From IMG/VR virus record IMGVR_UViG_3300029713_000071, positions 1 to 12,588 of that record: 12,588 bases of DNA; one strand, written 5' to 3'. A program made the position numbers and the translations under genes. The stretch comes from a virus. Position 1 is the first letter of the stretch. Each line of letters starts with the position of its first letter. Positions 754 to 12,588 of the stretch are shown piece after piece. Under the pieces are notes generated by a model that was given only the letters and a program-made list of their open reading frames with translations, did not search any database and was not told the DNA's origin.

Positions 754-785
754 TTGTGCCGCCCTTTCTTTGTCGATTATAAAGG

Positions 786-815
786 CTACTTGTCCATTGT
801 AGTCTATTTGTCCAT
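786..815. promoter_or_regulatory. Two 12-bp direct repeats (CTAYTTGTCCAT) overlapping the promoter; candidate operator
   Basis: ctacttgtccat at 786-797 and ctatttgtccat at 804-815, 18 bp apart. One overlaps the -10 and start site, the other sits in the spacer. Confidence 0.5.
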
Positions 816-824
816 TTGTGTCAA
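796..824 (-). promoter_or_regulatory. Near-consensus sigma-70 promoter for the cargo and maintenance operon
   Basis: Minus strand reads TTGACA (824-819), a 17-nt spacer, then TACAAT (801-796), about 40 nt upstream of the ATG at 753. Confidence 0.65.
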
Positions 825-840
825 TTGGAATGTTGTACCA

Positions 841-856
841 TTCTTACATTCTTTCA
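841..856. promoter_or_regulatory. Octamer doublet TTCTTACA TTCTTTCA just upstream of the -35
   Basis: Tandem 8-mers at 841-848 and 849-856, the same motif family as at 3427-3442, 7466-7535, 8021-8036 and 8318-8333. Confidence 0.45.
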
Positions 857-873
857 AAGCCTATCCAGGCATA

Positions 874-920
874 GAAAAACGGCCCTCTAGAATCGCTTCT
901 AAGGCGTTCTAAAAGGCCGC
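874..920 (-). terminator. Weak candidate terminator after the head-closure gene
   Basis: Minus strand: CGGCC...TAGAAgcgaTTCTA...GGCCG, then TTTTT (plus-strand aaaaa at 875-879). The stem is long and imperfect. Confidence 0.3.
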
Positions 921-982
921 TTCGAGTATTTGCCCATTGCCGCGCTAACGCGCCGCTACGTGGCTCTCTGTGGCTTCTGGGG

Positions 983-1384
983 CTATTTCCCGTTTTGGGC
1001 TAGCTTCTTGGGGTCGTAAGGGATTATGGGGCTAATGGTATTGCCGTCCTTTCGGCTACCATACAAAACCATGTCGCGCGTATAGTCCTCGTATGGGTCA
1101 ATGCGCGTAACCTGGTAGAGAATGCCCCTATAGCCTATTACTAGGTCGCTGGGGTAAGCCGTGCGCAAGCAATCCAGCCAATTAACCCGGAAAAGGCAAT
1201 CTTCCTTTGTGGTCGTGGTGCTGCTCGCATAGACAAGGCTTGCCGAAAGCTGTTTGAAGTAAGCCCAGATACTAGGCTGCGGGTGTACCGGCATGTATCC
1301 GTCAACCGGAAAGCCCTCCGCGTCCCTATAGCTTAGCTTCTTGTAGATAACAATCTTCTTATCCTTTAGAACCTGGTTAGCCAT
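983..1384 (-). CDS. Head-closure / head-tail adaptor protein (HK97 gp9 / SPP1 gp16-like)
   Basis: 133 aa, GAAGGAGGG RBS 6 nt before the ATG at 1384. The C-terminal pattern LFRVNW...DLVIGYRGILYQVTRIDPYEDYTRDMVLYG resembles the Phage_H_T_join family. It sits in the head module. Confidence 0.6.
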   Translation of the reverse strand: MANQVLKDKKIVIYKKLSYRDAEGFPVDGYMPVHPQPSIWAYFKQLSASLVYASSTTTTKEDCLFRVNWLDCLRTAYPSDLVIGYRGILYQVTRIDPYEDYTRDMVLYGSRKDGNTISPIIPYDPKKLAQNGK

Positions 1385-1398
1385 TTCTAGCCCTCCTT

Positions 1399-3039
1399 CT
1401 ACAGTGCGTTTAGAAACTCGTTGTAGTGCTCGTAAAGCCCTACGTAAGCGTCCAGTAGGCTTGCCGTGCCGTCTATGCGCCGCTTCGCGTTGCTGTTCTT
1501 AACCGGAACGATGTTGCCGTTACGGTCTTCCTGAATGCCGGTGTTTGTAAGGCACCATTTCAAAACCGGGTTGTTGTTGTAGATAACCTTCTTTGCCTGT
1601 AGGTCTGCGCCCAGGTTTTGCATGGGCAAGGAAAGCGTTTTAGCGCCCTGTATGCAACGCTCCATAGGAAAGCCGTAGCCCTCCATTTCCTCAACCCAGT
1701 AACGCGCGCTCCAACTGTCGTAGTAAACCCACAAAGGCGTTATGCCGTGCTCTTTGACTATCTCCAAAAACCATGCCGTTACGTCGCTGTAGTTAATCGT
1801 GTTGCCCTTGCAAAGCCGCACTAAACCGGCTTCTAGCCATTTGTCGTAGGGTATTTTCTCTTGCTCTACCCTCTGCGTGAAATTCTCTTCCGGTAGCCAA
1901 TACATTTGATGTATGTAGCGCTTGTGCGTCTCCGGGTGCATCATTAGAACCGTTGCGCATGTTAGGTCGGTCGTTAGCGACAAATCCGCGCCGCCAATGG
2001 CATACGCGCCCCGGAAGTCTTCAAGCGAAAATGTCTCTTCGTTGTTGATGCTGTCAAAGTCCAGCCACGCGTTATAGCGCGTCTCCCTTACGTTGAAGTC
2101 CTTGCAAAGGATGCCGCTAAGGTCTTTGGGGCTTTGCTTCGCGCGCTCCACCTTGGCTACAAGGTCTTCTAGCTTTTTAATCCGGCCTAAGCCTGGGTTG
2201 GCTTTGAACCATGCCGCCGGGTCTGTCCACTCGGCTTTAGCGTCCAGCTCGTAAATGATGGGCAAAAACGTAGGGTCGTTGATAACGCCGTCTACAACCT
2301 TACATGCATACTCGTAAGTATCATCGAAGATGCATTCGCGCACGGTTCCGGCCGTGGTAATCATCACTAGCAGGGGTTGCCGCCTAGCGCTTTGGCTCTG
2401 CTTCATGACCTCGTACAAATTGCGGTCTTTGATGCCGTGCAGCTCGTCAATGATTACGCAACTGCTGTTCAAGCCGTCCAGGGTGTCGCTGTTCTTGCCC
2501 AGGGCTTGCATCTTGCTCATAGCAGCCGAAAAATACAAATCGGTCTTGCGCTTCTTTATGTGCTTCCGTAGGTATGGGCTTTGGCTTACCATGTGGCAAA
2601 CTTCGTCAAAGATTATCTTTGCCTGGTCTTTCTTCGTGGCCACGCTGTAGATTTCCGCCCCGGCTTCGTTATCCGCAAGCATCATGTAAAGGGCTATGCC
2701 CGCTAGCATGGTGCTTTTGCCGTTCTTGCGCGCAACCATAAAGAAGGCTTCGCGGTACTTCCGCAAGCCTGTTTCGCTATCGACAAAGCCGAAAAGCGCG
2801 CTAATAAAGGCCTTTTGGAAAAGCTCTAGCCGCACGGGTTGCCCCGCCCATTCGCCCTTTGAGTGCTTGCAAAAGCGTTCTATGAACTCGATAGGCCGGT
2901 TTGCCTTCGCTTCGTCAAAGCGATATTTGCCGGGGTTGTCCATGTCGTAGACTAGCCGCGCGTATTCCTTCCTAACGCGCTTGCTCGTTACGATTTCCCC
3001 GGCTTCTATCTTGTCGGCGTATGCCTTAATCCAGTTCAT
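1399..3039 (-). CDS. terL: Terminase large subunit (Terminase_1 family)
   Basis: 546 aa with Walker A VARKNGKST, a Walker B-like CVIIDELH, and a C-terminal nuclease-type region. It lies immediately downstream of the small terminase gene. Confidence 0.9.
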   Translation of the reverse strand: MNWIKAYADKIEAGEIVTSKRVRKEYARLVYDMDNPGKYRFDEAKANRPIEFIERFCKHSKGEWAGQPVRLELFQKAFISALFGFVDSETGLRKYREAFFMVARKNGKSTMLAGIALYMMLADNEAGAEIYSVATKKDQAKIIFDEVCHMVSQSPYLRKHIKKRKTDLYFSAAMSKMQALGKNSDTLDGLNSSCVIIDELHGIKDRNLYEVMKQSQSARRQPLLVMITTAGTVRECIFDDTYEYACKVVDGVINDPTFLPIIYELDAKAEWTDPAAWFKANPGLGRIKKLEDLVAKVERAKQSPKDLSGILCKDFNVRETRYNAWLDFDSINNEETFSLEDFRGAYAIGGADLSLTTDLTCATVLMMHPETHKRYIHQMYWLPEENFTQRVEQEKIPYDKWLEAGLVRLCKGNTINYSDVTAWFLEIVKEHGITPLWVYYDSWSARYWVEEMEGYGFPMERCIQGAKTLSLPMQNLGADLQAKKVIYNNNPVLKWCLTNTGIQEDRNGNIVPVKNSNAKRRIDGTASLLDAYVGLYEHYNEFLNAL

Positions 3040-3048
3040 ACGCCGCCC

Positions 3049-3414
3049 CTATGGCCTTGCGTCCAGGAAGGCCATAAGCTCGTCTTCCGCGCCCTTCGCT
3101 TCGTCCTTGGGCAAAAGCTCGCAAAGCTGTCTGTAAAGAAGGCTGTAGCGCTGAATAAGCGTGCTGTAGCTCTTTAGCGCTGGGCTTTCCCTAAGCATTT
3201 CTTGTTTGCCGTTCTTGAAAAGCTCCACCGCGCCTTTTTCGTCCACGTCCGCGCGCAACTCTTCAAGCGTGCAAGCCATGAAAACTAACTCACGGGTCAA
3301 GCTGTCCGCTACGGCCTTCTTCGATTCCGGCACGGCCTTGGCAATCTTGTTGAGCTTGCGCGTTTCTGCGCGCCTGGTTTTGTCTTTGTCTATCTCCATG
3401 CTATCTACCCCCAT
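3049..3414 (-). CDS. terS: Putative terminase small subunit (P27-like)
   Basis: 121-aa helical, charged protein directly upstream of terL. The segment EELRADVDEKGAVELFKNGKQEMLRESPALKSY resembles the P27 small-terminase pattern. The second ATG at 3399 (MEIDKDK...) has GGGGG 8 nt upstream and may be the true start. Confidence 0.6.
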   Translation of the reverse strand: MGVDSMEIDKDKTRRAETRKLNKIAKAVPESKKAVADSLTRELVFMACTLEELRADVDEKGAVELFKNGKQEMLRESPALKSYSTLIQRYSLLYRQLCELLPKDEAKGAEDELMAFLDARP

Positions 3415-3758
3415 TTCAAGTAATCATGTAAGCATGTAAGCATACTTACCCCCCTCCTATGGGAAACCTCGGAGAGGTTTAGAGAGGTGGGCGCTGTGAT
3501 TAAGTGGCGGGCTGCTCCGCCTTCGCCCTGGGGGCGTTCGGGGAATGGTTACCGCTGTGTAAGACGCTCCGAATAGCAGCCACTAGCGCGAAAGAAGGAG
3601 TTAGTAGGGCTAATAGCTGTTGCCTTGGTCTGCTTCCCCGAAAACCAGGCTTCTAGCCTTTGGGTTACTAGCCGGTTGAGCGTCCCGGCAAAGCCCCCGC
3701 CGTCTGTCCGCCTGGCAAGCATCCCTAGCCGTTACCCGGAACGCCTTGCACAACGTAC
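3415..3758. other. 344-bp non-coding HNH-terS spacer; probable cos / terminase recognition region
   Basis: It is by far the largest gap inside the head operon, with short GC hairpins (aaacctc-gga-gaggttt, ggcgg-gctgct-ccgcc, cgccc-tgg-gggcg, aggct-tct-agcct). HK97-like HNH-dependent cos phages place cos next to terS. Confidence 0.4.
3427..3442. promoter_or_regulatory. Octamer doublet TGTAAGCA TGTAAGCA upstream of terS
   Basis: Exact tandem 8-mers at 3427-3434 and 3435-3442, followed by an inverted half CTTAC at 3445-3449. Confidence 0.45.
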
Positions 3759-4061
3759 CTATTCCTTTACCAGGTTGCCCGCTGCATCGAACCGCAAGCC
3801 CTCCGCCGTCGCCCTGCTCGTGAAGTGCTCGTGTTGGTGGCACGTCTGGCAAAGCGCTTCCAGGTTGTCCCAGTTGAGCGTTACGTTTGGGTCGTTGATG
3901 TTGGCGGGCGTTATATAGGTCTTGTGATGGACTATGAAGGCCGGTCGCCCGCAACGCTCGCATACATAGTGCTTGCTCTGCATGTAAGCCCTTTGGGTAT
4001 CCCTCCATGCCTTAGACGTGTAGAACGCCTTTGCAAACTCCTTCATAGTCCACCACTCCAC
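3759..4061 (-). CDS. HNH endonuclease (terminase-associated type)
   Basis: Contains CERCGRP...IVHHK...NLEALCQTCHQHEH (CxxC plus HNH/His-Me finger). The GVG-like GTG at 4061 or, more likely, the ATG at 4046 (MKEFAKAFYTSKAWR) is the start. Confidence 0.85.
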   Translation of the reverse strand: MEWWTMKEFAKAFYTSKAWRDTQRAYMQSKHYVCERCGRPAFIVHHKTYITPANINDPNVTLNWDNLEALCQTCHQHEHFTSRATAEGLRFDAAGNLVKE

Positions 4062-4065
4062 CTAG

Positions 4066-4341
4066 CTAGCCCACGTGCGCTACCGCCTTTAGCAGGTTGT
4101 CAATTGAGCGTTGCAGCTTGTCCGTGTCGGCCTGGGTCGGGTCGTACCAAAGCGACAAGAGGAACTTTGTAGCCGTCTGGGCAAGCGGGCTTGCCGCCTG
4201 GTCTTCTACGGTTAGGCCGGTCGCAATCGTGATGTATTGCGCCGCGCCCTCGATAAGTCCGGCAATAACCGCGTCATTGTCGGTGTTGTCCAGGCGCAAC
4301 CACTCGCGCGCTTCGTCCAGGCTGATAACCGCGTTAGTCAT
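4066..4341 (-). CDS. gp6-like head-tail connector (Phage_connect_1-like)
   Basis: 91 aa. The N-terminus ISLDEAREWLRLDNTDNDAVIAGLIEGAAQYI is the typical motif of this family. It lies directly after the capsid gene, with a GGGGAGGG RBS. Confidence 0.7.
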   Translation of the reverse strand: MTNAVISLDEAREWLRLDNTDNDAVIAGLIEGAAQYITIATGLTVEDQAASPLAQTATKFLLSLWYDPTQADTDKLQRSIDNLLKAVAHVG

Positions 4342-4361
4342 ACGTCAAGCCCTCCCCGCTA

Positions 4362-5621
4362 CTACTTGCTTGCAACGGAAAGCTTCACGAAAGCATCCGG
4401 GGCAATAACCTTGGTATCCGCAATAGCCATGCCGCGATAGTCGATAAGGCCGGAACGGAAAGCCGACTGGGTAGAAGACTCAACCGCAATGCCGTTGGCA
4501 AGGTTGTAGCCCAGGTAATTGAAGTCGCCGAAATAGGCCACGTTATCCGCCACAAAGTCATCAACGACAACATCAAAGCCAAGAATCTTGCCGATGGTCT
4601 CGTTACGCGGGTCGGGAACAAAGATAGGCTTCTTGTTATCGTCCACCATGCCATAGAAGGCCGTGTAAAGGGTCGCGTTGTTCATAACCCACTTAGCACG
4701 ACGGGCATAGCCGCGCTTCAGAAGGGCAACCGCCTTTACAACGTCCAGGTAGGCAATAGAACCGCCCGCCGCTACGGTAACGCTGTTCTTAGCGTCCCAG
4801 GTAACGCCCTTCTCAAGTCCCATGCCCTCGCCGGTGCCGGTGCCGTTGATAAGGCCGTCCGCGATGCACTCCATAACGCAGTTGGTGAGCTCGTCGGTAA
4901 GGTAGGCTTCGAATGCGTTAATGCTCATAGCCTTAACCTTCGCGCTGATAGAGAAAATCTTGATAATCTCGTTAGCGTCGAAGGTAACGTTAGTGATACC
5001 GGGCTGCTCGGTGTTCACGGTCGCGCCCTCGGTGTGCCATGCCGCCTTAGCGGAAGGCGTGGCAACCGGAACGGCAATCTTAGAAGGCATGTTGAAGGCG
5101 CGGGCGATGGAAAGCGCGCCGCCCTCGGTGCGTGCCTTGCTGACAATCTCGTTAAGCGTCTGGGTGGGGATGATAACCGGCGTGTTGCCGCTGGTCGTGT
5201 AAGCGTCCGCCGCTCGCTTCTCCACGTCCATAGCGCGGGTAAAGGCGTTCTTCTCGGCCTGGGTAAGGCTCTTGCCGGTAAGCGTCTTGTAGAAGGCGCT
5301 ACGGTACTCGGCACTTGCGAAAACGTCGCCCTTCACGGCCTGGTTGCTACCACCGGCAAAGCTCATGCCGGTAATGGGGTTGTAGCCGCGCGCTTCCGGC
5401 TCCTGCGCGCCCTGTGCGCCGCCCTGGTCGCCCTGGTCGCCCTGCTTCTCCTGCGCGTTAGCCTTGGCCTCGGCAAGGCCGGTAAGCTCGATATTAAGCT
5501 GCTTAATGTCTACGTTCGGGTCGGTCTCGATAAGTGCGTGCATCTCCTGCGCGCGCTTCTCAATCTCGGCAACGCTCATGTTGCGATAGTGGTTAAAAGC
5601 CTGCTGAACAGTGGTAAACAT
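4362..5621 (-). CDS. Major capsid protein, HK97 fold, with N-terminal delta/scaffold domain
   Basis: 419 aa, with a coiled-coil N-terminus followed by a capsid body (...NAFEAYLTDEL...GTGTGEGMGLEKG...NNATLYT...ILGFDVVVDD...). It follows the prohead protease, as in HK97-type modules. Confidence 0.85.
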   Translation of the reverse strand: MFTTVQQAFNHYRNMSVAEIEKRAQEMHALIETDPNVDIKQLNIELTGLAEAKANAQEKQGDQGDQGGAQGAQEPEARGYNPITGMSFAGGSNQAVKGDVFASAEYRSAFYKTLTGKSLTQAEKNAFTRAMDVEKRAADAYTTSGNTPVIIPTQTLNEIVSKARTEGGALSIARAFNMPSKIAVPVATPSAKAAWHTEGATVNTEQPGITNVTFDANEIIKIFSISAKVKAMSINAFEAYLTDELTNCVMECIADGLINGTGTGEGMGLEKGVTWDAKNSVTVAAGGSIAYLDVVKAVALLKRGYARRAKWVMNNATLYTAFYGMVDDNKKPIFVPDPRNETIGKILGFDVVVDDFVADNVAYFGDFNYLGYNLANGIAVESSTQSAFRSGLIDYRGMAIADTKVIAPDAFVKLSVASK

Positions 5622-5625
5622 GTTC

Positions 5626-6204
5626 TTACACCTCTTTCATAAGGATTTTGTTGCAAAGGATTAGCGCGTTGTTTAGCGCTTCAAGCCGGTTAAGCCCTTC
5701 CGTGAAGGCCTTGCGCGCTTCTACGCTTGCCGTCGGGTAGGCCGGGAATGGGCAAACGCTCACTTCGTATACCTTGGCAATCTTCGTAATGGTGCGCGTG
5801 TTGGTCTTCGGGTCGTAGCTGTCCCCGCCTTCCGGAACGGTGAAAGCAAAGCTCATGCCGCTTAGGTCGCCGCGCTTTACTGCCGTATGCACTGCCCTAG
5901 CGTCTTCCGTGTCCGGTAGTTCCGCCCTCATTTCAAGCCCCTGCCGGGTCAACTCAAAATGCAGGGTTTTGGGTGTGCGCGCCAACGGGATACGGTTCAA
6001 GTCGTGGTTGTACAAAAGTCGGCTGTCCGTAAGGTCTGCGCCGTCCAATGCTCCCCGCTTGATGATTTCCGTATAGCTTCCCGCTGGGTCGTTAATCGTT
6101 GTCGGTGTGTCGAAAACGATTGGCATACCCTCCAAAACAAGGCTTTCGCTACCCTCTGCCGTGGGTGCTTCCGCCCTGATTTCGGCTGTTCTTAGCTCTT
6201 TCAT
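5626..6204 (-). CDS. Prohead maturation protease, HK97 family (S78/U35)
   Basis: 192 aa. LLYNHD (catalytic His context) and LSGMSFAF (Ser context). The start overlaps the portal stop by 4 nt. Confidence 0.85.
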   Translation of the reverse strand: MKELRTAEIRAEAPTAEGSESLVLEGMPIVFDTPTTINDPAGSYTEIIKRGALDGADLTDSRLLYNHDLNRIPLARTPKTLHFELTRQGLEMRAELPDTEDARAVHTAVKRGDLSGMSFAFTVPEGGDSYDPKTNTRTITKIAKVYEVSVCPFPAYPTASVEARKAFTEGLNRLEALNNALILCNKILMKEV

Positions 6205-7424
6205 GCTGTTGCCCCCTCTGAATCCGCCGGGGCTTCGTCTCCGCTTGCCTTAGCAAGCTGGTAATCGTCCACGATGTCGGTATTTGCGTTGTTAAGGCTC
6301 TGCAAACGCTTGTCGCCGTCATCCACCGGCGGAAGGTTGAGAATCTCCAAAGCCTGGTTAATGGTGAGAATGCCGAACGGCATAAGCTCCCGAACAAGCT
6401 CCAGTTTGGTTTTGTTGCTTGCGAACAGAAGCCGCCCGCTGCCGAACTCAATAGCGTTGCCAAACGCTTGCTCGCGCTCCGTGAAAACCTTGCGCGTGAA
6501 CTCCAGGGAAAGAAGAAGGGCGAACGGCTCAATTACGGATTCGTAGAACGCGCCCCATTCGTCTTCTGAATAGGTCGAATTTACGATTTTCTCCGAAATG
6601 CCCAGGTAGTTGTAAATCTTCGTCGCCGTGGCCTTCGTCTGCTCCGGGTCAACCGTTACCGGCTTGCTGTCAATCGGTATGTATTCGCTCTTTGAATCGG
6701 TCGCAACGATGCCGCCATTGTTGGCAACGTCCAGGTACTCGGCAATAAAGGCTTCCTTGTCGGCCTTTAGCTTCTCGTCGCTGAGAATCTGGGTGTATTT
6801 CAGAATGCCGCGAATGGTCGCGCCGCTCTTGATGCCGTTAATGATTCCTTCGTTTTCGGTGTGCGCAAGCTCCAAAGCCGGGTAAATGGCTTCGTTTGAA
6901 TCGCCTAGCAGCTCGTCGCTGTTGTAGTTCCGGCGCAAGTGGATTAAATCGCAGTACGGCAAAACAACCTCGTTGCCGCTCCTGAAACGGAATTGCACGA
7001 AAAGCCGCCCGCTAGCGTCTGTAAGAAAGTCGGCTTGTACGCAAGTCATAGGGTAAATGCTTCTTACATTGCCGCGTTCGTCCCTGTCCAGGAAGGCAAA
7101 GGCGTTGTTGAAAAGGTAGTAATGCGTGGCAAGCTTATAAAGCATGTCGTAGGCGTTCATGTACGGGTTAGGCTGCGTCTGTAGAAGCCTGTTCAATACC
7201 CGGTCGCCTTCCGCCGTCCCCGCGCCGGTCTTGATAACGTGCGCGCCCTTCAACTTCGCACAGTTGCGCGCGATAGCGTCAACCGCTCCCCGGTAAATAT
7301 CGTTTGCATATGCGCCGCCGCTGAAAGCCGTAAAGGTAGCCATGTTGCCGTTAAGCGTCTCCGTTTTGGCAAGCTGCTTGCTGTTCGGCTTAAACCGGCG
7401 GGCTAGATTACTCCACCAACCCAC
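6201..7424 (-). CDS. Portal protein (HK97/SPP1-type Phage_portal family)
   Basis: I place the start at GTG 7424 (cac at 7422-7424) with GAAGG 8 nt upstream, giving (M)GWWSNLARRFKP...NDIYRGAVDAIARNCAKL... The 75 codons upstream in the track ORF (to 7649) cover repeat DNA and a hairpin and look non-coding. ATG 7343 is an alternative start. Confidence 0.85.
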   Translation of the reverse strand: MGWWSNLARRFKPNSKQLAKTETLNGNMATFTAFSGGAYANDIYRGAVDAIARNCAKLKGAHVIKTGAGTAEGDRVLNRLLQTQPNPYMNAYDMLYKLATHYYLFNNAFAFLDRDERGNVRSIYPMTCVQADFLTDASGRLFVQFRFRSGNEVVLPYCDLIHLRRNYNSDELLGDSNEAIYPALELAHTENEGIINGIKSGATIRGILKYTQILSDEKLKADKEAFIAEYLDVANNGGIVATDSKSEYIPIDSKPVTVDPEQTKATATKIYNYLGISEKIVNSTYSEDEWGAFYESVIEPFALLLSLEFTRKVFTEREQAFGNAIEFGSGRLLFASNKTKLELVRELMPFGILTINQALEILNLPPVDDGDKRLQSLNNANTDIVDDYQLAKASGDEAPADSEGATA

Positions 7425-7465
7425 GCGCTCAACCTTCTTTCGTCTTATTAGTAGGCTTGTAGTAA

Positions 7466-7535
7466 TTCTTACAATCCTACATGTAAAAGAATAACACAAT
7501 AACGCCATACATGCAAGAATGCAAGAATGTAAGAA
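7466..7535. promoter_or_regulatory. Inverted array of octamers upstream of portal; candidate late-operon operator/promoter region
   Basis: TTCTTACA (7466-7473) and ATCCTACA (7474-7481) face TGCAAGAA (7512-7519), TGCAAGAA (7520-7527) and TGTAAGAA (7528-7535) across a 30-bp spacer. Only weak -35/-10 candidates are present (TTGCAT-17-TATTGT on the minus strand). Confidence 0.45.
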
Positions 7536-7948
7536 CGCGCAACCCTGCAAGGTGCTTTCGTTCGCGTCCAGGCGATAGCAAGAGACAAGGCAAGGAATAA
7601 ATGCCCCTGTGGGGCGCTGTGGTGCCGTTTCTAGGCCGGTTTGTCCCAAAGATGGGCGAATACCCTAGAAAGCATTGAAAGACGCTCTAACGGCCTTCTA
7701 TGGCCTTATATGCCGGATGTTCTGCATACGTAGGCATTCGCGCTCAATCTGCCGCTTTCTCGCTGTCTTTCGTAACTCAAAAACTAGCCGTTCGCTTTTA
7801 GTCGAAAGCCCTACTAACAAGTGAGGTTAACTTGCTTCTACTAGTCCCCTCCATGTGCTTGTAAAGATGTAAAGACTTGTAGAACTTGTAGCCTTAGGGA
7901 AAATGTGGTCTTTCCACTGATGGATAGGCGTTTTTCCCGTTTTTCGCG

Positions 7949-8014
7949 TCATCACTTTGACACGGTTCAATCATCACTTTGACACGGTTTGCGGGACACT
8001 TTTACACGGTTTGG
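7949..8014. repeat. Iteron cluster 1: three contiguous 22-bp direct repeats
   Basis: tcatcactttgacacggttcaa (7949-7970), tcatcactttgacacggtttgc (7971-7992), gggacacttttacacggtttgg (7993-8014). Core CACTTT(G/T)ACACGGTT. Confidence 0.85.
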
Positions 8015-8246
8015 GCCATTTGTAAGATTGTAAGTATTCGCATAAAACCATGTAAAAGCGTTGCGCTTTCGTCCAGGGCTAAGAAGTGAAGGCCTGGGAA
8101 CTGTTGAAAAGCTCCTTCCCCTTGAAAGTCTCCCTACCCCTCATTCTTAGCGTGCTTGTTAAAGATGGAATAGGTTGGAATAGATTGGAGGAAACGCGAA
8201 AATCGCTAAAAACCCTGCTGGGTAGGCGTGTTTCGGGTTTTAGGGC

Positions 8247-8312
8247 GGGACACTTTTACACGGTTTACGGGACACTTTTACACGGTTTGCGGGACACTTT
8301 TACACGGTTTCC
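8247..8312. repeat. Iteron cluster 2: three contiguous 22-bp direct repeats; probable replication origin
   Basis: gggacacttttacacggttt + ac/gc/cc at 8247-8268, 8269-8290 and 8291-8312. Identical apart from the last two bases. Confidence 0.9.
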
Positions 8313-8399
8313 CAATTTGTAAGAATGTAAGCATAGCCCCAGAACCATGTAAAACCGTTCCGCTTTCGTCCAGGGGTTCAAGCATTCCGCACCACTGAC

Positions 8400-8425
8400 A
8401 AAAACAAAAACGCCCCGCTGGGGCG
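8400..8425 (-). terminator. Rho-independent terminator after the primase-polymerase gene
   Basis: Minus strand: CGCCCC-agc-GGGGCG (8425-8411), then TTTTTGTTTTT (8410-8400), about 70 nt downstream of the stop at 8496. Confidence 0.75.
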
Positions 8426-8495
8426 TTCTCGTGCCATTTTAAGGCGCTCAAATTCAATTCATGGGCAAATACTCAAAGAGGGGTGAAAAACGGCT

Positions 8496-9533
8496 CTAAA
8501 CGGCTCCTGTGGCCTTTTGGCGCACATATTCGGAGTATGTAACGGGTCTGCTTTCCTCTTCCCCGTTCTTCCTGGCCCTCTTTATCAGTCGCTCTATTTC
8601 GGTTTGTCCGAAGGTCTGGTTACCCCTACGCTTTTCGTCCCAACGTTCCGGCTCTAGCCTGTAAAGGCCGCTTTGCCTAAAGAGTGCGTCTATCTGTGCC
8701 GGGTTTGCGTCCGTGTAAAAGATTAGGTCGTTTAGCAAAGCCGCCCTTGCTTCGCTGTAGCCGTCGTTAACGCCTGGGTAGTCGCTTGTGTCCCCGCTCC
8801 ATAGCTTCGCTATCCTGTGCCGGTTCTGTCCTCTGAACATACGCCCCTTTATCGCGTCCAGGTCGCCGCTAACGGCTTGCTGTGGCTTCGTGTAAGCCGT
8901 TCTAACGGCTTCTTTCGCCGCCGCCTGGGTCTGGTTGCCGCTTTGGTCTACAAAGGCGTTGTAGACGTTTTCCAGGGCTTCCGGCGCGTCCTTAATCTCG
9001 CGCCGCCCCTCGAACACTCTACCGGTAAGGATTATGTAGCGCTCTTTAGCGTAAATCTCTATTTCCGGCTTCTTTCCCGTGCCGCTAAAGTGGCAATCCC
9101 TTAGAAGGCCCCTTTTCTTTTCCAGGATTAGGCCGCTTTTCCGCGCGATGATGTGAAAGCCCCGCCCGCTTTGGCTAACCTCTGTGTAGCTGTCCACGGC
9201 TTCGATAATGTCCGCCGCTTCCGGTAGGATGTAACCGTTTCGGTCTATCACGTTATCCAGGTCTATAACGATGTAATCGTCTGTGAATACAAAGCCCAGG
9301 CCGCGATACGTCCCGCCCTTTACGGCTTCGTAGCACGCTTCAAAGCTCGCCCATGTCTTAGGGTCTGTCGTGCTCGCCGCCCGCCTGGTTACCGGGTTGT
9401 ATGGCCGCTTTAGCTCCGATTGGTCGCCGCCATAGACTAGCCACTTAGCCTTAGCCTTTAGCTCTTCCGGTATGGGCTTGTATCGTCCCATGGTCTTAGC
9501 AAAGCTTGCCGGTATGCGCTTGCGTCTCGCCAT
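8496..9533 (-). CDS. AEP-superfamily DNA primase-polymerase (Prim-Pol) without a helicase domain
   Basis: 345 aa. KWLVYGG...KRPYNP...DPKTWASFEAC...GLGFVFTDDYIVIDLDN (DxD), SYTEVSQSGRGFHII (sGxGxH), EIEIYAKERYIILTG. C-terminal YSEARAALLNDLIFYT...IDALFRQSGLYR...RWDEKR... is like the primase-associated domain of phage/plasmid primases. No Walker A motif. Confidence 0.8.
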   Translation of the reverse strand: MARRKRIPASFAKTMGRYKPIPEELKAKAKWLVYGGDQSELKRPYNPVTRRAASTTDPKTWASFEACYEAVKGGTYRGLGFVFTDDYIVIDLDNVIDRNGYILPEAADIIEAVDSYTEVSQSGRGFHIIARKSGLILEKKRGLLRDCHFSGTGKKPEIEIYAKERYIILTGRVFEGRREIKDAPEALENVYNAFVDQSGNQTQAAAKEAVRTAYTKPQQAVSGDLDAIKGRMFRGQNRHRIAKLWSGDTSDYPGVNDGYSEARAALLNDLIFYTDANPAQIDALFRQSGLYRLEPERWDEKRRGNQTFGQTEIERLIKRARKNGEEESRPVTYSEYVRQKATGAV

Positions 9534-9535
9534 TG

Positions 9536-10705
9536 CTAGTCCGCCCCTTTCGGGTAAACCTCTACGCCGTCCGTAAGCTCTTCGTAGCGCTCAATAACGC
9601 CGTAGCTCAAAAGGTATTCAAGCTGCTTTCTTATCGCGTTGCGTATGCGTGACTTACGCTTTCGCACCGCGTCCGGTGTCTTGTCCTTCGAAAAGTCGGC
9701 TTTGTCGTAGAAGCTCTGATAGGAAAGCTTGTACATGTTCGGATAAATGCGTTTTCCCTGGCTCTTCATACTCGCAAGAGTGGTAACGCGGTCGCCTATC
9801 ATGTTCACAATCTCCACGTTGTAGCGCGTGCGCCTTATGCCCCAATTGAAGGGGCCTATCTTCTTTGGCTGTAGCGTGGTCATTTGCTTAACCGCTATGG
9901 CGTACTGTGCCAAAGCCGGAAGGGTACGGCCAAACTCGTAATAGCGCACGTTGTCGCCGTCTTCCGTCTTAATCGTCCAGCCGGTAACCTCTATAAGGTT
10001 GCCTTCGTGCTTAATGGCCCCTATTCCTGGGAATACGTCTAGAATCGCGTCTACGTCAAGCTCTATGTATATCTCGGCCATTTTTACCAGGCTGGCGTGA
10101 AGGCTTTCCAGCTGCTCTTCCGTGGGCTTCACTGTGCTCTTCATGACTAGCTTACGGTAAAGCTGTATGGGCGAAACACGGCATATCCCATGCTCTACCA
10201 GGTCGCAAACGGCAAAGAAGACAAACTTGTCTTCCGCGTCCAGGCCGTCCAGCACCTCGCGCACTTTCGATAGGTTCTTTAGAAGCACTCTAACGGTTCT
10301 GTCTTCGCGTTCGCCGGTAAGCTCTGCGCCCACAACCTTAACAACGGCCTGTGTCTGTCGCTCGATGTGCCTAAACTTCCCTTCCGGGTCTATTCCGAAA
10401 AGGCTACGGGTAACGTTGTCGTTCGAGAGCTGGTAGCCCTCATATTCCCCGTGTAACGTCTGCTTTTTCTCGCCGCCCATAACGGCTTCTATAACTTCGT
10501 CCAATTTCACTTCCTTCAATTCCCCCTCGCTACCTGCAAGCTCCATTTCGTCCAGGTATCCAGCGCTTGCGCCGTCTTTGAATGTGATTACGCCTTTCTC
10601 TATGAGTGCGCCCACAATCGAAAGAAGGGCTTCTTTGCGCTGCTTTTCGTCCTTGATAACGGTTAGCTTGCCGGTGATATAGTCGATAACTTCGCTATTT
10701 CGCAT
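9536..10705 (-). CDS. Hypothetical 389-aa protein; candidate replication initiator / iteron binder (context only)
   Basis: ATG at 10705 with AGAGG upstream, overlapping the preceding gene by 11 nt and ending 2 nt before the primase start. No NTPase motif. The basic C-terminus (KRKSRIRNAIRKQLEYLLSYGVIERYEE) looks like a winged-helix-type DNA-binding end. No family recognised. Confidence 0.7.
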   Translation of the reverse strand: MRNSEVIDYITGKLTVIKDEKQRKEALLSIVGALIEKGVITFKDGASAGYLDEMELAGSEGELKEVKLDEVIEAVMGGEKKQTLHGEYEGYQLSNDNVTRSLFGIDPEGKFRHIERQTQAVVKVVGAELTGEREDRTVRVLLKNLSKVREVLDGLDAEDKFVFFAVCDLVEHGICRVSPIQLYRKLVMKSTVKPTEEQLESLHASLVKMAEIYIELDVDAILDVFPGIGAIKHEGNLIEVTGWTIKTEDGDNVRYYEFGRTLPALAQYAIAVKQMTTLQPKKIGPFNWGIRRTRYNVEIVNMIGDRVTTLASMKSQGKRIYPNMYKLSYQSFYDKADFSKDKTPDAVRKRKSRIRNAIRKQLEYLLSYGVIERYEELTDGVEVYPKGAD

Positions 10706-10895
10706 CCTTCGCCGCCTCTTTGCCGTTTAGGTAATCGTCTATGGCTTCTTGGGTGAAATACCAGGTGCGCCCCATTTTGTGACCAACTATCTTTCCCGCG
10801 TCCAAGTAGCGCTTTATCGACCTGGTAGAACACTCGAAAACTTCCGCTACCTCGTGAATGCTGTAATAAATCTTTCCTCTGATTGTCACGGCCAT
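10695..10895 (-). CDS. Small HTH DNA-binding protein, excisionase/AlpA (HTH_17/MerR-like) family
   Basis: 66 aa. YSIHEVAEVFECSTRSIKRYLDAGKIVGHKMGRTWYFTQEAIDDYL is the classic pattern. AGGAGGG RBS 7 nt before the ATG. Confidence 0.8.
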   Translation of the reverse strand: MAVTIRGKIYYSIHEVAEVFECSTRSIKRYLDAGKIVGHKMGRTWYFTQEAIDDYLNGKEAAKDAK

Positions 10896-10898
10896 TTT

Positions 10899-11240
10899 TT
10901 AACCCTCCTGCTCTTCTGCTTGCTGCTTGTCGGCTGCGTGAATGCCCTTTAGCCGTTCCAGGATTTCCCGGTCTACTTCGTCCAGGCCGCGCCCGTCCAG
11001 GTATTCGGTAATGATTGTTTGTAAGGCTTCTTTCTTGCTTACTCTGTTCATAAAGGCGTAATCGTTGAACCGATTTACTACGGCTTCGTCCAGGCGAAAG
11101 CTAACTACAACGTCTTTGCTCTTTTGCCTGGTTGCCCTTGCCGCCTTTGCCGGTGTCTTCGTCGGCTCTTCCGGCTCTAGCTCTACCGGGTCGCCCATAT
11201 AGTCTTCAATCGCCCTAAACTCAAAGTTCTTATCTGTCAT
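10899..11240 (-). CDS. Ribbon-helix-helix protein; ParG/ParB-like centromere-binding partner of ParA
   Basis: 113 aa. ATGA overlap with the parA stop. The disordered basic N-terminus is followed by VVSFRLDEAVVNRFNDYAFMNRVSKKEALQTIITEYL (a beta-alpha-alpha RHH pattern). Confidence 0.65.
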   Translation of the reverse strand: MTDKNFEFRAIEDYMGDPVELEPEEPTKTPAKAARATRQKSKDVVVSFRLDEAVVNRFNDYAFMNRVSKKEALQTIITEYLDGRGLDEVDREILERLKGIHAADKQQAEEQEG

Positions 11241-11998
11241 TTCTTGCCCTCTTTCTCTAGAATCTCGTTCGTTAGCGCCTGGTAGTCTTTTGCGCCGTTG
11301 CTTCGTGGTGCGTATGCGAAAACGTCTTTGCCCTCTGTTGGTGCTTCTGCTAACGCTATGTTGTTGCGAATCCTGGTAGCAAAGACGGCTTCCGGGAAGA
11401 GTTCTTGTAGCTTCGCTTCTACCGCGCCCGTTAGCTTCTTCCGCCGGTCGTATTTCGTTATGAGTACGCCGGTAACCTTGATATCCGGGTTAATGCGTGC
11501 CTTTGCCGCCTTGATAGTCTGCATAAGCCGCGCGATACCTGCTAGCGCTAGATATTCCGGCTCTAGTGGTATGTAGACTTCCGCGCAAGCTGCAAGGGCG
11601 TTGAGCGCCAATACCCCTAGCGATGGGCTGCAATCTATAAGAATGTAGTCATACTTACTTGTAATCGGCTCTAACGCTTGCTTTAGAAGCTGGTTACGCC
11701 CCGTTTCGCTTGCGCTTTCGATGCCTGTTAGCCGTAGGTCGCCCGGTATGAGGTCGCAACCGTTCGGAAGGCTCCTAATAACCTCTTCCGCCTTCCTGGT
11801 CCCCTTCAAAAGCTCGTAGGCCGTCTTATCGTCTCTTGAAACGTTGAAAGCAAAGCTTGTAGTAAGGCTTCCTTGCGGGTCTAGGTCAATCAACAAAACG
11901 CGCTTGTCCGCCTTCGCAAGTCCCGCGCCAACGTTTACGGCTGTCGTGGTCTTCCCAACGCCGCCCTTCTGGTTCACTATCGCTATTACCTTTGCCAA
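11237..11998 (-). CDS. parA: ParA/Soj-family partition ATPase
   Basis: 253 aa. Deviant Walker A NQKGGVGKTTT, LLIDLDPQGS, ILIDCSPSLG. TTG start at 11998 with AAAGGGG upstream. Confidence 0.9.
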   Translation of the reverse strand: MAKVIAIVNQKGGVGKTTTAVNVGAGLAKADKRVLLIDLDPQGSLTTSFAFNVSRDDKTAYELLKGTRKAEEVIRSLPNGCDLIPGDLRLTGIESASETGRNQLLKQALEPITSKYDYILIDCSPSLGVLALNALAACAEVYIPLEPEYLALAGIARLMQTIKAAKARINPDIKVTGVLITKYDRRKKLTGAVEAKLQELFPEAVFATRIRNNIALAEAPTEGKDVFAYAPRSNGAKDYQALTNEILEKEGKK

Positions 11999-12001
11999 TG
12001 G

Positions 12002-12388
12002 TTACGCCCCTTTCTTTTTTCTCGCGTTTTGGTTGCCAAGTTTTGCGCGGCGCATTCGTTCCAGGGCTTCCGGTGTGTAAACGCCCGTCTTTCCCTTGTT
12101 CCAAGGCTCCGCGCCGCCCGGCGCGATGTTCCAACCAAGTTCCGTTAGTCTCATGCTCTTTATTTCTTCTTTTTCCAGCTGGTAGGCCTCTTCCTGCGTC
12201 AAGCCCTCGGCAATGATTAAGTGCCGTATGTTGTCCCAGCCGTATTTCTTGACTTGCTCATAGAACCGGCTCGAATGCCTGTAGCCCTCGCCATGGTTCC
12301 ATCTTTGCTCCGGCTTCTGCTTGGTAACCCCTATGTATATCCGGGGTACCGGGTCGCAGGGCGTGATATGTGCGTATAGCGTGTACAA
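12002..12388 (-). CDS. Free-standing GIY-YIG nuclease with a NUMOD3-like C-terminal motif
   Basis: 128 aa, TTG start at 12388. TLYAHI...RIYIGVTKQKPEQRWNHG (GIY...YIG...R), QLEKEEI (catalytic Glu context), ELGWNIAPGG (GYN-type Asn), then NKGKTGVYTPEALERMRRAKLG. Aligns by eye with the I-TevI catalytic domain. Confidence 0.8.
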   Translation of the reverse strand: MYTLYAHITPCDPVPRIYIGVTKQKPEQRWNHGEGYRHSSRFYEQVKKYGWDNIRHLIIAEGLTQEEAYQLEKEEIKSMRLTELGWNIAPGGAEPWNKGKTGVYTPEALERMRRAKLGNQNARKKKGA

Positions 12389-12389
12389 G

Positions 12390-12588
12390 CTACGCCCCCT
12401 TTATCTCGTGCTTTATTTGCTCGTTCTGATACCTAACGGCTAAGTCTCCCCGGCCTTCTAGGTACTCGATGCAAAGCCGCTTGTTTAGGAATGGCCCGAA
12501 TAGCTCGCCGTCTATCTTGCCGCCCTCGCTCCAATAGCCGTAGTTGTAGGCCGTCTTTGTGTCGTGGCTTGCATGGTTTAGCGCGTTT
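12390..12588 (-). CDS. Hypothetical protein, C-terminal part of the same 138-aa junction-spanning ORF
   Basis: The frame continues from base 1 across the join (codon GAC is split by it): ...GGKIDGELFGPFLNKRLCIEYLEGRGDLAVRYQNEQIKHEIKGA. Stop TAG is cta at 12390-12392, 1 nt before the TTG start of the next gene. Confidence 0.6.
   Translation of the reverse strand, partial: NALNHASHDTKTAYNYGYWSEGGKIDGELFGPFLNKRLCIEYLEGRGDLAVRYQNEQIKHEIKGA
12511..12588. repeat. Terminal direct repeat, right copy (circular-closure overlap)
   Basis: 78/78 identity with bases 1-78. Confidence 0.95.

Follow-up and report, generated by a model that had tools for sequence, protein, structure and literature searches.

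A circular 12.5-kb element of Clostridia-type human gut bacteria joins head and packaging genes to a ParA and replication module and is probably a phage satellite kept as a plasmid

The window, by which we mean the whole 12,588-nt stretch analyzed here (IMG/VR virus record IMGVR_UViG_3300029713_000071), begins and ends with the same sequence. This exact 78-nt terminal repeat makes the entire window a complete circular unit, and the extent of 983-11998 given by the first-pass annotation is too short. We counted 17 genes, all on the same strand, instead of the 16 claimed before; the additional one is a 138-aa ORF across the junction. The overlap and the head and packaging region are laid out as follows.

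1-78, no strand: assembly overlap, repeated exactly at 12511-12588; the actual unit is a circle of 12,510 bp
983-1384, minus: head-closure protein Hc1, at the tail interface (PF05521, 1.8e-5; phrog_25)
1399-3039, minus: large terminase TerL (PF03354, PF20441; phrog_9, 9e-167)
3049-3399, minus: probable small terminase TerS, 116 aa (phrog_1066, 4e-34)
3445-3575, minus: conserved noncoding block with a G-run upstream of TerS, candidate cos/packaging site
3759-4046, minus: HNH endonuclease of the packaging machine (PF01844, 4.9e-9)
4066-4341, minus: gp6-like head-tail adaptor Ad1 (PF05135, phrog_40, TIGR01560, 1.5e-13)
4362-5621, minus: HK97-fold major capsid protein (PF05065, 3.4e-35, residues 149-415; phrog_10, 5e-56)
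5626-6204, minus: S78 prohead protease (PF04586, 2.8e-29)
6201-7424, minus: portal protein, 407 aa, GTG start (PF04860, 1.7e-51); same gene call in independent contigs

HMM searches with Pfam and PHROGs confirmed the portal, S78 protease, HK97-fold capsid, gp6-like adaptor, head-closure protein, HNH endonuclease, and TerL. The ATPase and nuclease domains of TerL each match Pfam at ~1e-37, and the first ~148 residues of the capsid protein lie outside the Pfam capsid domain. TerS is a softer call: the gene sits at the expected position, between HNH and TerL, and is kept in all relatives, but its sole match, phrog_1066, is a family of unannotated function, and the assignment rests on that position. 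The block at 3445-3575 could be aligned across lineages down to 61% capsid identity; pairing of its palindrome at 3464-3481 is kept via compensatory changes, and a packaging function is predicted from these sequence features.

Alleles of Hc1 swap independently of neighboring genes that are 93 to 99% identical. Compared with the window, Hc1 of L001 is 56% identical although the capsid is 92% identical, and Hc1 of L049 is 94% identical although the capsid is 82% identical. Hc1 had no match among 50,697 phage records. In capsid-forming PICIs (cf-PICIs), adaptor/connector divergence sets tail compatibility; the exchange of Hc1 mirrors this and, by analogy, may be a signature of the tail interface. 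One cf-PICI, EcCIEDL933 (15.5 kb), has a T=4 capsid, which by the same kind of analogy is the most likely geometry here, and the capsid of the element would be small.

Tail, lysis, and integrase functions had been reported missing, and their absence was confirmed in any frame of the window. Pfam, PHROGs, NCBIfam, and PADLOC scans of the window detected no integrase, tail, holin, or endolysin families; a six-frame tblastn search of it with the relatives' integrases and small recombinases returned nothing (E > 0.5); and its intergenic regions hold no plausible small ORFs. No CI- or Stl-type repressor is recognizable in the window, and the analysis identified neither a helper phage nor a compatible tail module. 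What the element does encode, apart from the head genes, is a maintenance and replication module.

1-296, minus: N-terminal part of the 138-aa ORF, continuing at 12390-12510; 138 aa in every independent contig
343-753, minus: DUF3846 protein, first gene of the maintenance operon (PF12957, 9.6e-15)
8496-9533, minus: Prim-Pol with an NrS-1-like helix-bundle domain and without a helicase domain (phrog_1829, 3.6e-60; PF22763, 1.2e-16)
9536-10705, minus: 389-aa protein from a family without annotation; candidate initiator of replication that would bind the iterons
10695-10895, minus: HTH_17/excisionase-family DNA-binding protein in an AlpA-like position (PF12728, 7e-11; TIGR01764)
10899-11240, minus: probable ribbon-helix-helix (RHH) partner of ParA, with a 4-nt overlap with parA (phrog_876 repressor, 1e-5)
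11237-11998, minus: ParA/Soj-type partition ATPase (PF13614 [AAA_31], 7.9e-53; ParA/Soj structures, 3e-55 to 1e-52)
12002-12388, minus: GIY-YIG nuclease-domain protein (PF01541, 6.6e-5; phrog_314, 2e-17)
12390-12510, minus: C-terminal part of the junction-spanning 138-aa ORF

ParA, the AlpA-like HTH protein, and Prim-Pol, as first annotated, were upheld by Pfam and PHROGs. ParA is a Soj-like protein of 253 aa with a dN/dS of about 0.1. The RHH partner proposed along with it is less firm: its family profile matches the RHH protein SvtR (2kel) at an E value of 0.0095 and CopG at 0.37, which are weak matches. It has a conserved strand-helix-helix core and a disordered basic N-terminus, its low-confidence model shows an extended-helix-helix topology, and it is a candidate centromere-binding protein or repressor. 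The GIY-YIG protein, which shares the parA operon with DUF3846 and the 138-aa ORF, is 66 to 90% identical in close ParA-type lineages and 42 to 43% in L060-L062. Family searches with the junction ORF gave no match, and neither did searches of Pfam, PHROG, NCBIfam, and PDB with the 389-aa protein. Models of the 389-aa and RHH-like proteins reached a pLDDT of 55 to 57, and fold searches produced no significant match; the weak matches of the 389-aa protein include winged-helix proteins. Remote relatives of this protein adjoin ParA, HTH_17, and NrS-1-type primases, and iteron similarity tracks its similarity across lineages. The iterons lie among several other noncoding sites.

796-824, minus: strong sigma-70-like promoter, TTGACA-17-TACAAT (11/12 matches)
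843-856, plus: inverted copy of the 8-bp tandem array CTTACAnn, just upstream of the 796-824 promoter; conserved
3427-3440, minus: 8-bp array CTTACAnn, about 26 nt upstream of TerS
7468-7533, minus: four matches to the CTTACAnn-type array, one of them inverted, upstream of the portal/head operon
7953-8012, minus: iteron cluster 2, three 22-nt units within a 297-nt duplicated unit
8027-8056, minus: promoter-like TTTACA-18-TACAAT reading into iteron cluster 2; its -10 overlaps the 8-bp array at 8021-8034
8246-8310, minus: iteron cluster 1, 3 x 22 nt, minus strand AAACCGTGTAAAAGTGTCCCGY (97% matches)
8324-8353, minus: promoter-like TTTACA-18-TACATT reading into iteron cluster 1; overlaps the array at 8318-8331
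8404-8432, minus: intrinsic terminator at the end of the maintenance/replication operon (13-pair stem, 7 G-C pairs, T-run)

We propose that the 796-824 promoter drives DUF3846, the 138-aa ORF, GIY-YIG, parA, and the genes for RHH, HTH, the 389-aa protein, and Prim-Pol. The iterons noted earlier are real, three repeats in each of the two clusters. Every lineage has iterons with a 22-nt period in this position, each with a sequence of its own, and cluster 1 is a candidate replication origin. The 8-bp arrays are present at every promoter region, with 7 matches in the window, all intergenic, against 0.05 expected; at the spot of the 3427-3440 array, other lineages have AAGACAGC or GTAAACAw arrays. 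These arrays are likely switch or centromere sites, and the one at 843-856 is a candidate operator or centromere. In one relative, the 16,384-nt contig L058, window-type arrays and iterons accompany a different ParA/RHH/389-aa module; this contig may be a chimera, and if it is not, the assignments of proteins to sites are wrong.

The window circle is reproducible and never joined to other DNA. Two contigs, L034 (k127, 127-nt overlap) and L044 (k119, 119-nt overlap), are 100% identical to it with other break points, and a third independent assembly is 97% identical, with a 30-nt overlap. The exact 389-aa protein is found on 22 contigs and the exact capsid on 7; the about 29 contigs encoding the window's exact proteins are all 20 kb or shorter, and none has chromosomal genes at its flanks. 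The 389-aa protein is encoded only on contigs of ≤12.9 kb, the longest for its family being 12.3 to 12.9 kb. No close copy of the element occurs among 185,579 representative genomes. At least three assemblies with the element have records naming human-gut metagenomes, and it was seen in >10 sequencing runs. Its hosts are probably Clostridia-type bacteria of the human gut.

ParA and capsid genes co-occur on similarly small elements: at least five diverged lineages of 12 to 14 kb keep the ParA/replication and head modules together, with 44 to 71% identity to the window in ParA and 55 to 92% in the capsid. Four contigs of these lineages end in overlaps of the assembler type, 55 or 99 nt long. No lineage has lost or disrupted any of the eight head/packaging genes, and wherever a gene has enough substitutions for an estimate, dN/dS lies between 0.06 and 0.5 (0.15 to 0.22 for the capsid); this architecture is kept under purifying selection. 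L010, L015, and L022 have a nonhomologous small protein beside ParA. A small (~190 aa) tyrosine recombinase lies inside the head module of many relatives; L010 and L015 carry a tyrosine recombinase there, and the window has none. Cousins with 52 to 58% capsid identity have tyrosine integrase and XRE-like genes, as read from the sequences; a tRNA gene lies close to the integrase in three of these loci, and four loci belong to larger Clostridia-genome contigs. Apparently, these distant cousins have swapped lifestyle, with an integrase/repressor module in place of ParA/replication.

Given the reproducible, unlinked circle, the conserved and selected architecture, and the integrase-bearing cousins, the partitioned satellite-plasmid reading is well supported, though not demonstrated. 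We consider it probable that the window is a capsid-forming phage satellite kept as a plasmid, not as a chromosomal island. In the cell, it would be a low-copy-number plasmid that depends on a helper. Carriage would involve replication from the iteron region, with the 389-aa protein as initiator and Prim-Pol as primase, and segregation by ParA and its RHH-like partner, both supplied by one operon that starts with the 824-796 promoter and stops at the 8432-8404 terminator; kept in this way, the element would need no excision step. For transfer, an active tailed phage, co-resident or infecting, would lead to expression of the head operon from portal to Hc1, with the 8-bp arrays at promoter regions as likely switch or centromere sites. 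Proheads of the HK97 type would assemble, probably with T=4 geometry, and HNH, TerS, and TerL would package unit-length DNA after cutting it at a cos-type site that lies upstream of terS. The phage would supply tails to the Ad1/Hc1-capped heads and also lyse the cell.

An alternative is that the window is a mini-satellite or mini-phage that, in the manner of Acinetobacter Phanie or Streptomyces MiniFlayer, is nonlysogenic (virulent or pseudolysogenic) and replicates only in coinfection; the circles would then be replicative or concatemeric DNA, and ParA would have another role. Capsid-encoding satellites of 12 to 20 kb do exist, Phanie and Streptomyces satellites included, the window has neither an integrase nor a recognizable CI-type repressor, and a circular assembly cannot tell a plasmid from replicative forms or concatemers. 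However, the cassette of ParA and its overlapping small partner is complete and under purifying selection, the 22-bp iterons are plasmid style and conserved in position, the par and replication genes form one operon with a near-consensus constitutive-type promoter, and the element recurs across gut metagenome records and sequencing runs. We judge this alternative unlikely. It is very unlikely that the window is the excised circle of an integrative island whose recombinase acts in trans, from the host, a helper phage, or another element. An excisionase-family HTH_17 protein is present, several more distant cousins are integrated beside tRNA genes, and many relatives have the small recombinase, but no recombinase or remnant was found in any frame, neither the exact-protein contigs nor the representative genomes hold an integrated close copy, and the ParA/iteron module would be redundant. 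Firmicutes phage-plasmids of 31 to 135 kb with ParA and distantly related HK97 capsids, together with the lack of an identified helper, would fit a cryptic plasmid with a domesticated or decaying head module (GTA-like or a phage-plasmid relic) and without tail-dependent transfer. This is hardly probable with all eight head/packaging genes intact and selected in every lineage and a unit size as tight as expected for headful-limited small capsids. Finally, although the 78-nt overlap equals an assembler k-mer size and the iteron duplication breaks some assemblies, false closure of a piece of a larger phage is extremely improbable, since three assemblers or k-mer settings gave the same 12,510-bp circle from different samples with different break points, and circles of 12.0 to 12.7 kb are also obtained for relatives from five or more lineages.

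As a capsid-forming satellite kept as a plasmid, the element resembles several known systems in part. With cf-PICIs (EcCIEDL933 and the Bacillus/Clostridium/Staphylococcus group) it shares the HNH-dependent head and packaging repertoire and the lack of tail and holin genes. Its gene order, portal-protease-capsid first, is that described for the Firmicutes cf-PICI group, its divergent head-tail interface genes resemble cf-PICI tail-compatibility determinants, and its integrase-bearing cousins look like classical cf-PICIs. Unlike these, the window has no integrase or chromosomal site, ParA/RHH stands in place of the integrase/repressor module, and Prim-Pol has no helicase part. All but 3 of 969 cfPICIs are in chromosomes (de Sousa et al.). 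Phage-plasmids of the P1, N15, and SSU5 types also combine vertical inheritance by ParA with horizontal transfer in capsids; those of Clostridioides difficile and Bacillus are 31 to 55 kb, and Firmicutes phage-plasmid capsids are 23 to 27% identical to that of the window. They are complete phages with tails and lysis, 3 to 10 times larger, whereas the window cannot make a virion alone. P4, Phanie, and MiniFlayer are helper dependent, with genomes of ~11 to 18 kb. P4 is able to replicate as a plasmid, and Phanie and MiniFlayer encode capsid genes; to our knowledge, the latter two do not integrate, have no partition system, and have not been proposed to be stably inherited. P4 itself encodes no capsid protein and in nearly all cases is integrated.

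The partition cassette resembles TP228 ParF/ParG and pSM19035 delta/omega: the gene for a Walker-type ParA overlaps the next one, whose small product has a basic, disordered N-terminus and a core of strand-helix-helix form. The short tandem repeats at several promoters recall omega, whose heptad arrays serve as both centromere and operators. In contrast to ParG and omega, to which there is no significant sequence or fold match, the window pairs its small protein with a Soj-like ParA; its arrays are candidate sites, and L058 contradicts a simple protein-array pairing.

The first-pass annotation saw an undescribed class in this element. That claim is outdated because capsid-forming phage-inducible satellite-plasmids (cf-PISP) have been proposed in Vibrio crassostreae TG54 (bioRxiv, October 2025; Nat Commun 2026, PMC13230959). 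By gene content, TG54 is likewise a small circular extrachromosomal element (15.8 kb versus 12.5 kb) with capsid, portal, protease, adaptor, closure, HNH, and terminase genes, parA, and replication functions, and without tail genes or integrase; for both, plasmid inheritance and transfer in their own capsids on stolen tails are proposed. TG54 differs in coming from a marine Vibrio, a phylum other than that of the Clostridia-type human gut element, and in having an extra tyrosine recombinase inside the head module. Its maintenance genes are repA, a ProQ/FinO-like protein, and an Stl-like regulator, where the window has the probable RHH protein, HTH_17, the 389-aa protein, Prim-Pol, and iterons. 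The present analysis adds lineage-specific iterons, 8-bp arrays at promoter regions, and independent swapping of head-closure alleles. The Vibrio authors found no cf-PISP outside Vibrio (PMC13230959). The lifestyle has been proposed so far only in marine Vibrio, and the window, probably the Clostridia/gut counterpart of cf-PISP, would be a gut variant from Gram-positive bacteria whose maintenance module is unrelated.

The last 78 nt of the 12,588-nt window are an exact copy of its start, and the unit is therefore a circle of 12,510 bp. Two further assemblies from different samples (MEGAHIT k127 and k119) are 100% identical to it; in both the overlap is exactly the k-mer length, and the break points differ. 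A third assembly, at 97% identity, closes with a 30-nt overlap. Samples that contain the element include ERR912108 and SRR21186640. We found 22 contigs that carry the exact 389-aa protein (gene at 9536-10705, minus strand) and 7 that carry the exact capsid, none of them longer than 20 kb and none with flanking cellular genes, and the longest contigs of the 389-aa family (19 clusters) measure 12.3-12.9 kb. A fragment of a larger phage is ruled out by the reproducible circles and the lack of any contig above 20 kb. The first-pass annotation had allowed for mis-assembly of such a phage, and identical circles opened at different points speak against it. It had also allowed for an integrated copy with an integrase; there was none on the contigs or in one genome from each of 185,579 species, among which no close copy of the element turned up. 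A near-identity DNA search of 72,556 plasmids and 50,697 phages gave no match. Since no contig exceeds 20 kb, no flanking cellular genes were seen and no genome holds a close copy, an integrated state is unlikely. Judging from the assemblies, the element is probably a satellite-plasmid that exists as a plasmid in cells.

Every gene of the window lies on the minus strand. Family searches confirmed most of the gene calls made from sequence: portal, S78 protease, HK97-type capsid, the gp6-like head-tail adaptor Ad1 (PF05135 and TIGR01560), the head-closure protein Hc1 (PF05521 and phrog_25), HNH and TerL (both by Pfam), and the maintenance genes for ParA, an HTH_17/excisionase-type DNA-binding protein and a Prim-Pol with an NrS-1-like helix-bundle domain. 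The assignment of ParA as a partition ATPase is firm; those of TerS and the small ParA partner are softer. The putative TerS owes its name to lying between HNH and TerL, and its only match is to the unannotated phrog_1066. The ParA partner is a putative RHH protein: it has a PHROG repressor match (1e-5), its family profile reaches SvtR, an RHH protein, at E=0.0095 and CopG at 0.37, and a strand-helix-helix core is conserved, with a low-confidence model of that topology. Single-sequence structure prediction gave a pLDDT of 55, and a fold search with it returned no significant match.

The predicted absence of tail, lysis and integrase genes held up. No window protein matched an integrase, tail, holin or endolysin family in four libraries, a six-frame search of the window with the integrases and small recombinases of relatives gave no match, and its non-coding stretches contain no credible small genes. 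The 344-nt gap between HNH and terS holds no remnant of an integrase or small recombinase, and the accessory genes include no defence system. The span first assigned to the element, 983-11998, is too short: it omits GIY-YIG and DUF3846 genes that share an operon with parA, and a 138-aa ORF spanning the circle junction had been missed. The GIY-YIG protein (128 aa, 12002-12388) lies directly upstream of parA with a gap of 3 nt. It is 66-90% identical in close ParA-type lineages and 42-43% in three others (L060-L062), and being kept across lineages it behaves as a core gene, not a sporadic homing endonuclease; origin nicking and an anti-helper nuclease are candidate roles.

We compared this gene set with capsid-forming PICIs (cf-PICIs) under the SatelliteFinder definition (de Sousa 2023), which forbids tail and holin genes. 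The window shares with cf-PICIs their own capsid, portal, prohead protease, adaptor, closure protein, HNH and TerL, a TerS on position and phrog_1066, and the absence of tail and holin genes. Unlike cf-PICIs, which carry an integrase and reside as chromosomal islands (all but 3 of 969 cfPICIs are in chromosomes, according to de Sousa et al.), it has no integrase or remnant of one and is never on a contig above 20 kb. Its candidates for their AlpA/MerR/Stl-type regulator and primase-replicase are an HTH_17 protein (AlpA-like superfamily) and a Prim-Pol. The head cassette of the window family matches the portal-protease-capsid-first order of Firmicutes cf-PICIs (Bacillus/Clostridium/Staphylococcus group). 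Phage-plasmids, in contrast, encode a full virion with tail and lysis genes, and the window has neither.

According to a 2025 review, a single satellite, that of an inovirus, had been shown to be a plasmid. [quoted passage not shown] Compared by description, TG54 and the window element are both small circles that assemble apart from the chromosome, and both have the head and packaging genes of a cf-PICI but neither tails nor an integrase. TG54 has parA and a replication initiator; in the window ParA is firm, iterons are present and the 389-aa protein is the presumed initiator. The two differ in phylum, habitat and maintenance module, and capsid tblastn against the 72,556 plasmids gave no Vibrio match. 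No other paper in the literature searched uses "satellite-plasmid" in the cf-PISP sense. Because the window element fits a cf-PISP in every feature compared, it probably belongs to that kind rather than to a new class. The earlier reading of a tail-stealing, partitioned plasmid was largely right as biology, but its claim to an undescribed class was wrong, since TG54 had already been proposed in Vibrio (PMC13230959).

Non-coding and regulatory features of the window
754-982, 3415-3758 and 7425-8495: the sizeable non-coding stretches; there are no others
824-796: near-consensus promoter TTGACA-17-TACAAT, preceding DUF3846
8432-8404: strong terminator, following Prim-Pol
7953-8080 and 8250-8378: duplicated unit, each copy combining a conserved CCTGGACG box and a promoter-like site with an 8-bp array and three 22-nt iterons
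8353-8324 and 8056-8027: promoter-like sites of the duplicated unit, reading into three 22-nt iterons

The promoter at 824-796 and the terminator at 8432-8404 delimit a single maintenance/replication operon, which runs across the circle junction. Prim-Pol and portal are separated by a 1.07-kb region that contains the 297-nt duplicated unit, and an Rfam scan of this region found no RNA family. Several Logan contigs (L036-L040) break exactly within the 297-nt repeat. Both origin promoters point through the iterons to a hairpin at 7615-7603 that resembles a terminator, and a non-coding RNA spanning the origin may therefore be made.

Iterons with a 22-nt period occur at this position in all five lineages examined, with a sequence own to each. 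Iteron-type replicons are defined by tandem 17-22-bp origin repeats bound by their own initiator, and these repeats are candidate replication origin iterons. Their likeness tracks that of the 389-aa protein, not that of Prim-Pol: between the window and the related locus L053 the iteron differs at 1 base in 17, and the 389-aa protein is 57% and Prim-Pol 48% identical, while two other relatives, L049 and L057, are alike in both iteron and 389-aa protein. Since the iterons track it, and since its remote relatives adjoin ParA, HTH_17 and NrS-1-type primases, the 389-aa protein is likely the replication initiator. It has no Pfam, PHROG, NCBIfam, PADLOC or PDB-sequence match, and its AlphaFold model (pLDDT 57) gave nothing significant in Foldseek. 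A profile search of 1.84 billion representatives recovered 593 clusters at E<=1e-3; 60 sampled remote relatives are unannotated, with no PHROG match, no PDB match better than E=0.27 and a sole Pfam match, DUF3895, in one member. The protein and its relatives (P0020-P0167) form part of a large unannotated superfamily, and its C-terminal two-thirds is common to proteins of 400-600 aa.

Conservation of the last ~130 nt ahead of terS extends to lineages whose capsid identity is 61%; the stretch contains a G-run and a palindrome whose pairing survives compensatory changes, which suggests a structured or two-fold-symmetric recognition site. The palindrome, AAACCTC-TCC-GAGGTTT at 3464-3481, has homologous positions in three relatives (L053, L060 and L061), and its compensatory versions read ACCCG..CGGGGT and ACCC..GGGT. 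We regard this block (about 3445-3575) as a candidate cos/packaging site, in line with the HNH-dependent cos packaging of cf-PICIs. As for capsid geometry, EcCIEDL933 packs 15.5 kb in a T=4 shell, so T=4 would be most likely for 12.5 kb.

Alleles of Hc1 shift independently of neighbouring genes. Relative to the window, L001 has a capsid 92% and an Hc1 56% identical, and L049 a capsid 82% and an Hc1 94% identical; L057 and L049 share TerL at 99% and Hc1 at 64%. The divergent region of cf-PICIs is their adaptor/connector pair, which has been shown to decide which phage tails are captured. Hc1 swapping bears the same signature, which argues that the heads may acquire tails. A search for the helper with Hc1 among phage records gave no match, and in IMG/VR Hc1 matched solely other contigs of at most 13.2 kb, at least five of them satellite-like, and no helper. 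The weakest of these matches, the 6.7-kb L065 (43%), was judged without the region downstream of Hc1.

The relatives come from IMG/VR, Logan assemblies and JGI/ENA metagenomes. In at least five diverged lineages, elements of 12-14 kb join a ParA/replication module to the head module, the co-occurrence for which the first-pass annotation had proposed to search; four contigs of these lineages carry assembler-type terminal overlaps of 55 or 99 nt. Identities across them are 44-71% for ParA and 55-92% for capsid. Close lineages have the full gene order in common, and in L010, L015 and L022 the small protein beside ParA is non-homologous. Every gene with enough substitutions to judge has a dN/dS of 0.06-0.5, and head and plasmid modules are therefore both under purifying selection. 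Between the window and L039, dS is 0.02-0.06 from parA to Prim-Pol and 0.18-0.75 in the head genes; recent recombination thus joined modules of different histories. Positions 1-37 of L009 (IMGVR_UViG_3300018483_000012) are Illumina adapter sequence (ATCTACACTCTTTCCCTACACGACGCTCTTCCGATCT), so that this public viral contig is contaminated.

The head cassette recurs in more distant cousins (capsid 52-58%), together with what we read from sequence as a 360-410-aa tyrosine integrase and XRE-like genes. A tRNA gene lies near the integrase in three cousin loci, and four belong to larger contigs in genomes of Anaerotignum, Oscillospiraceae or unclassified Bacillota; such cousins look like classical capsid-forming PICIs. 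A third flavour of relatives is circular and lacks ParA, with a small recombinase and a different unannotated ~400-aa gene in which we read primase-like motifs. In the cultured Clostridium sp. K13, scaf_59 (L031, NZ_JAASHM010000059.1) is a self-closing 12,653-nt contig with a 77-nt terminal overlap that holds nothing but such a cousin element, with a capsid at 55%, a small recombinase, no ParA, and a 404-aa gene, read as a replication protein, that differs from the window's. Many relatives, two of the ParA type included, have within the head module a ~190-aa protein consisting of a tyrosine-recombinase catalytic domain alone (PF00589, 1e-26), between Ad1 and HNH or terS (L010 7598-8143, L015 6981-7529, L006 10887-11462 and 11 other loci); the window has none. 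It may be a dimer resolvase; TG54 offers a parallel, with a "distinct tyrosine recombinase" within its own head module.

The motif CTTACAnnCTTACA occurs 7 times in the window against 0.05 expected, always between genes, and makes up short arrays of 8-bp tandem repeats (CTTACAnn).

Array sites in the window
terS: ~26 nt upstream of the gene
portal: upstream of the gene
both origin-proximal promoters: covering their -10 regions
maintenance promoter: a short way upstream, in inverted orientation

Other lineages have AAGACAGC or GTAAACAw arrays at the same positions. Array type goes with the RHH allele, including its putative DNA-reading strand (VVVSFRLD versus TLVSWRIS), and also with head-module type. 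We rejected this covariation as proof that the arrays belong to the RHH-like protein, since they follow the head module too and L058 is an exception: there window-type arrays and iteron are combined with another RHH/389-aa module. L058 (ERZ1034962 NODE_563; 16,384 nt, of which 12,298 nt were analysed) is longer than one unit; its head genes, arrays and iteron are of the window type, and its ParA/RHH/HTH/389-aa/Prim-Pol block is a different one. Its length approximates one unit plus one ParA-to-Prim-Pol block, and it may therefore be a chimeric assembly or a heterodimer of two co-resident variants; it may also be a true recombinant with mismatched sites. Binding of the arrays by the RHH-like protein is our hypothesis, and the arrays are a candidate centromere of the ParA system. 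A second short repeat, distinct from the CTTACA arrays, lies at 790-819 and is a candidate further operator. It reads TTGTCCAT on the plus strand, in ~3.5 copies, and ATGGACAA on the gene strand, and it runs over the maintenance promoter's -10 region and start.

A broader reading, which we hold only tentatively and consider rather unlikely, is that in this gut-Clostridia satellite-plasmid family the partition cassette doubles as a lysogeny switch and modules recombine freely. The RHH partner of ParA would bind arrays at every promoter of the element, that is, those of the maintenance operon, the two origin-proximal promoters and the late promoters of portal and terS, so that a single complex would both form the centromere and silence the capsid and packaging genes. 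A helper phage would displace the RHH protein and thereby induce the satellite, and iteron/initiator, array/RHH, head and tail-interface modules would swap to match new hosts and helper tails.

The relatives, the nearest phage capsids (<=33% identity) and contig records naming human-gut metagenomes point to human-gut Clostridia as the putative host. ParA and Prim-Pol had best plasmid matches below 50% identity from many phyla, those of Prim-Pol being haloarchaeal, and are therefore uninformative on host.

Phage satellites have so far been treated almost entirely as chromosomal islands, and capsid-forming satellite-plasmids have been proposed in Vibrio only and reported absent from other genera (PMC13230959). 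Our results extend this very recent concept to gut Gram-positives and reveal a recombining modular family. They indicate that the probable satellite-plasmid lifestyle arose independently in Gram-positive gut anaerobes, where a ParA/iteron module took the place of an integrase/repressor module and the head cassette was conserved. Satellite searches that demand an integrase or chromosomal location miss such elements, and small "viral" circles in gut viromes may be plasmids. The Clostridium sp. K13 element could serve for experiments on episomal capsid-forming satellites of Clostridia, and hypotheses on origin, switch and tail matching are open to test from the window element. A self-packaging replicon of 12.5 kb lends itself as a minimal system in which to study small HK97 capsids, tail piracy and how partition is coupled to late-gene control.
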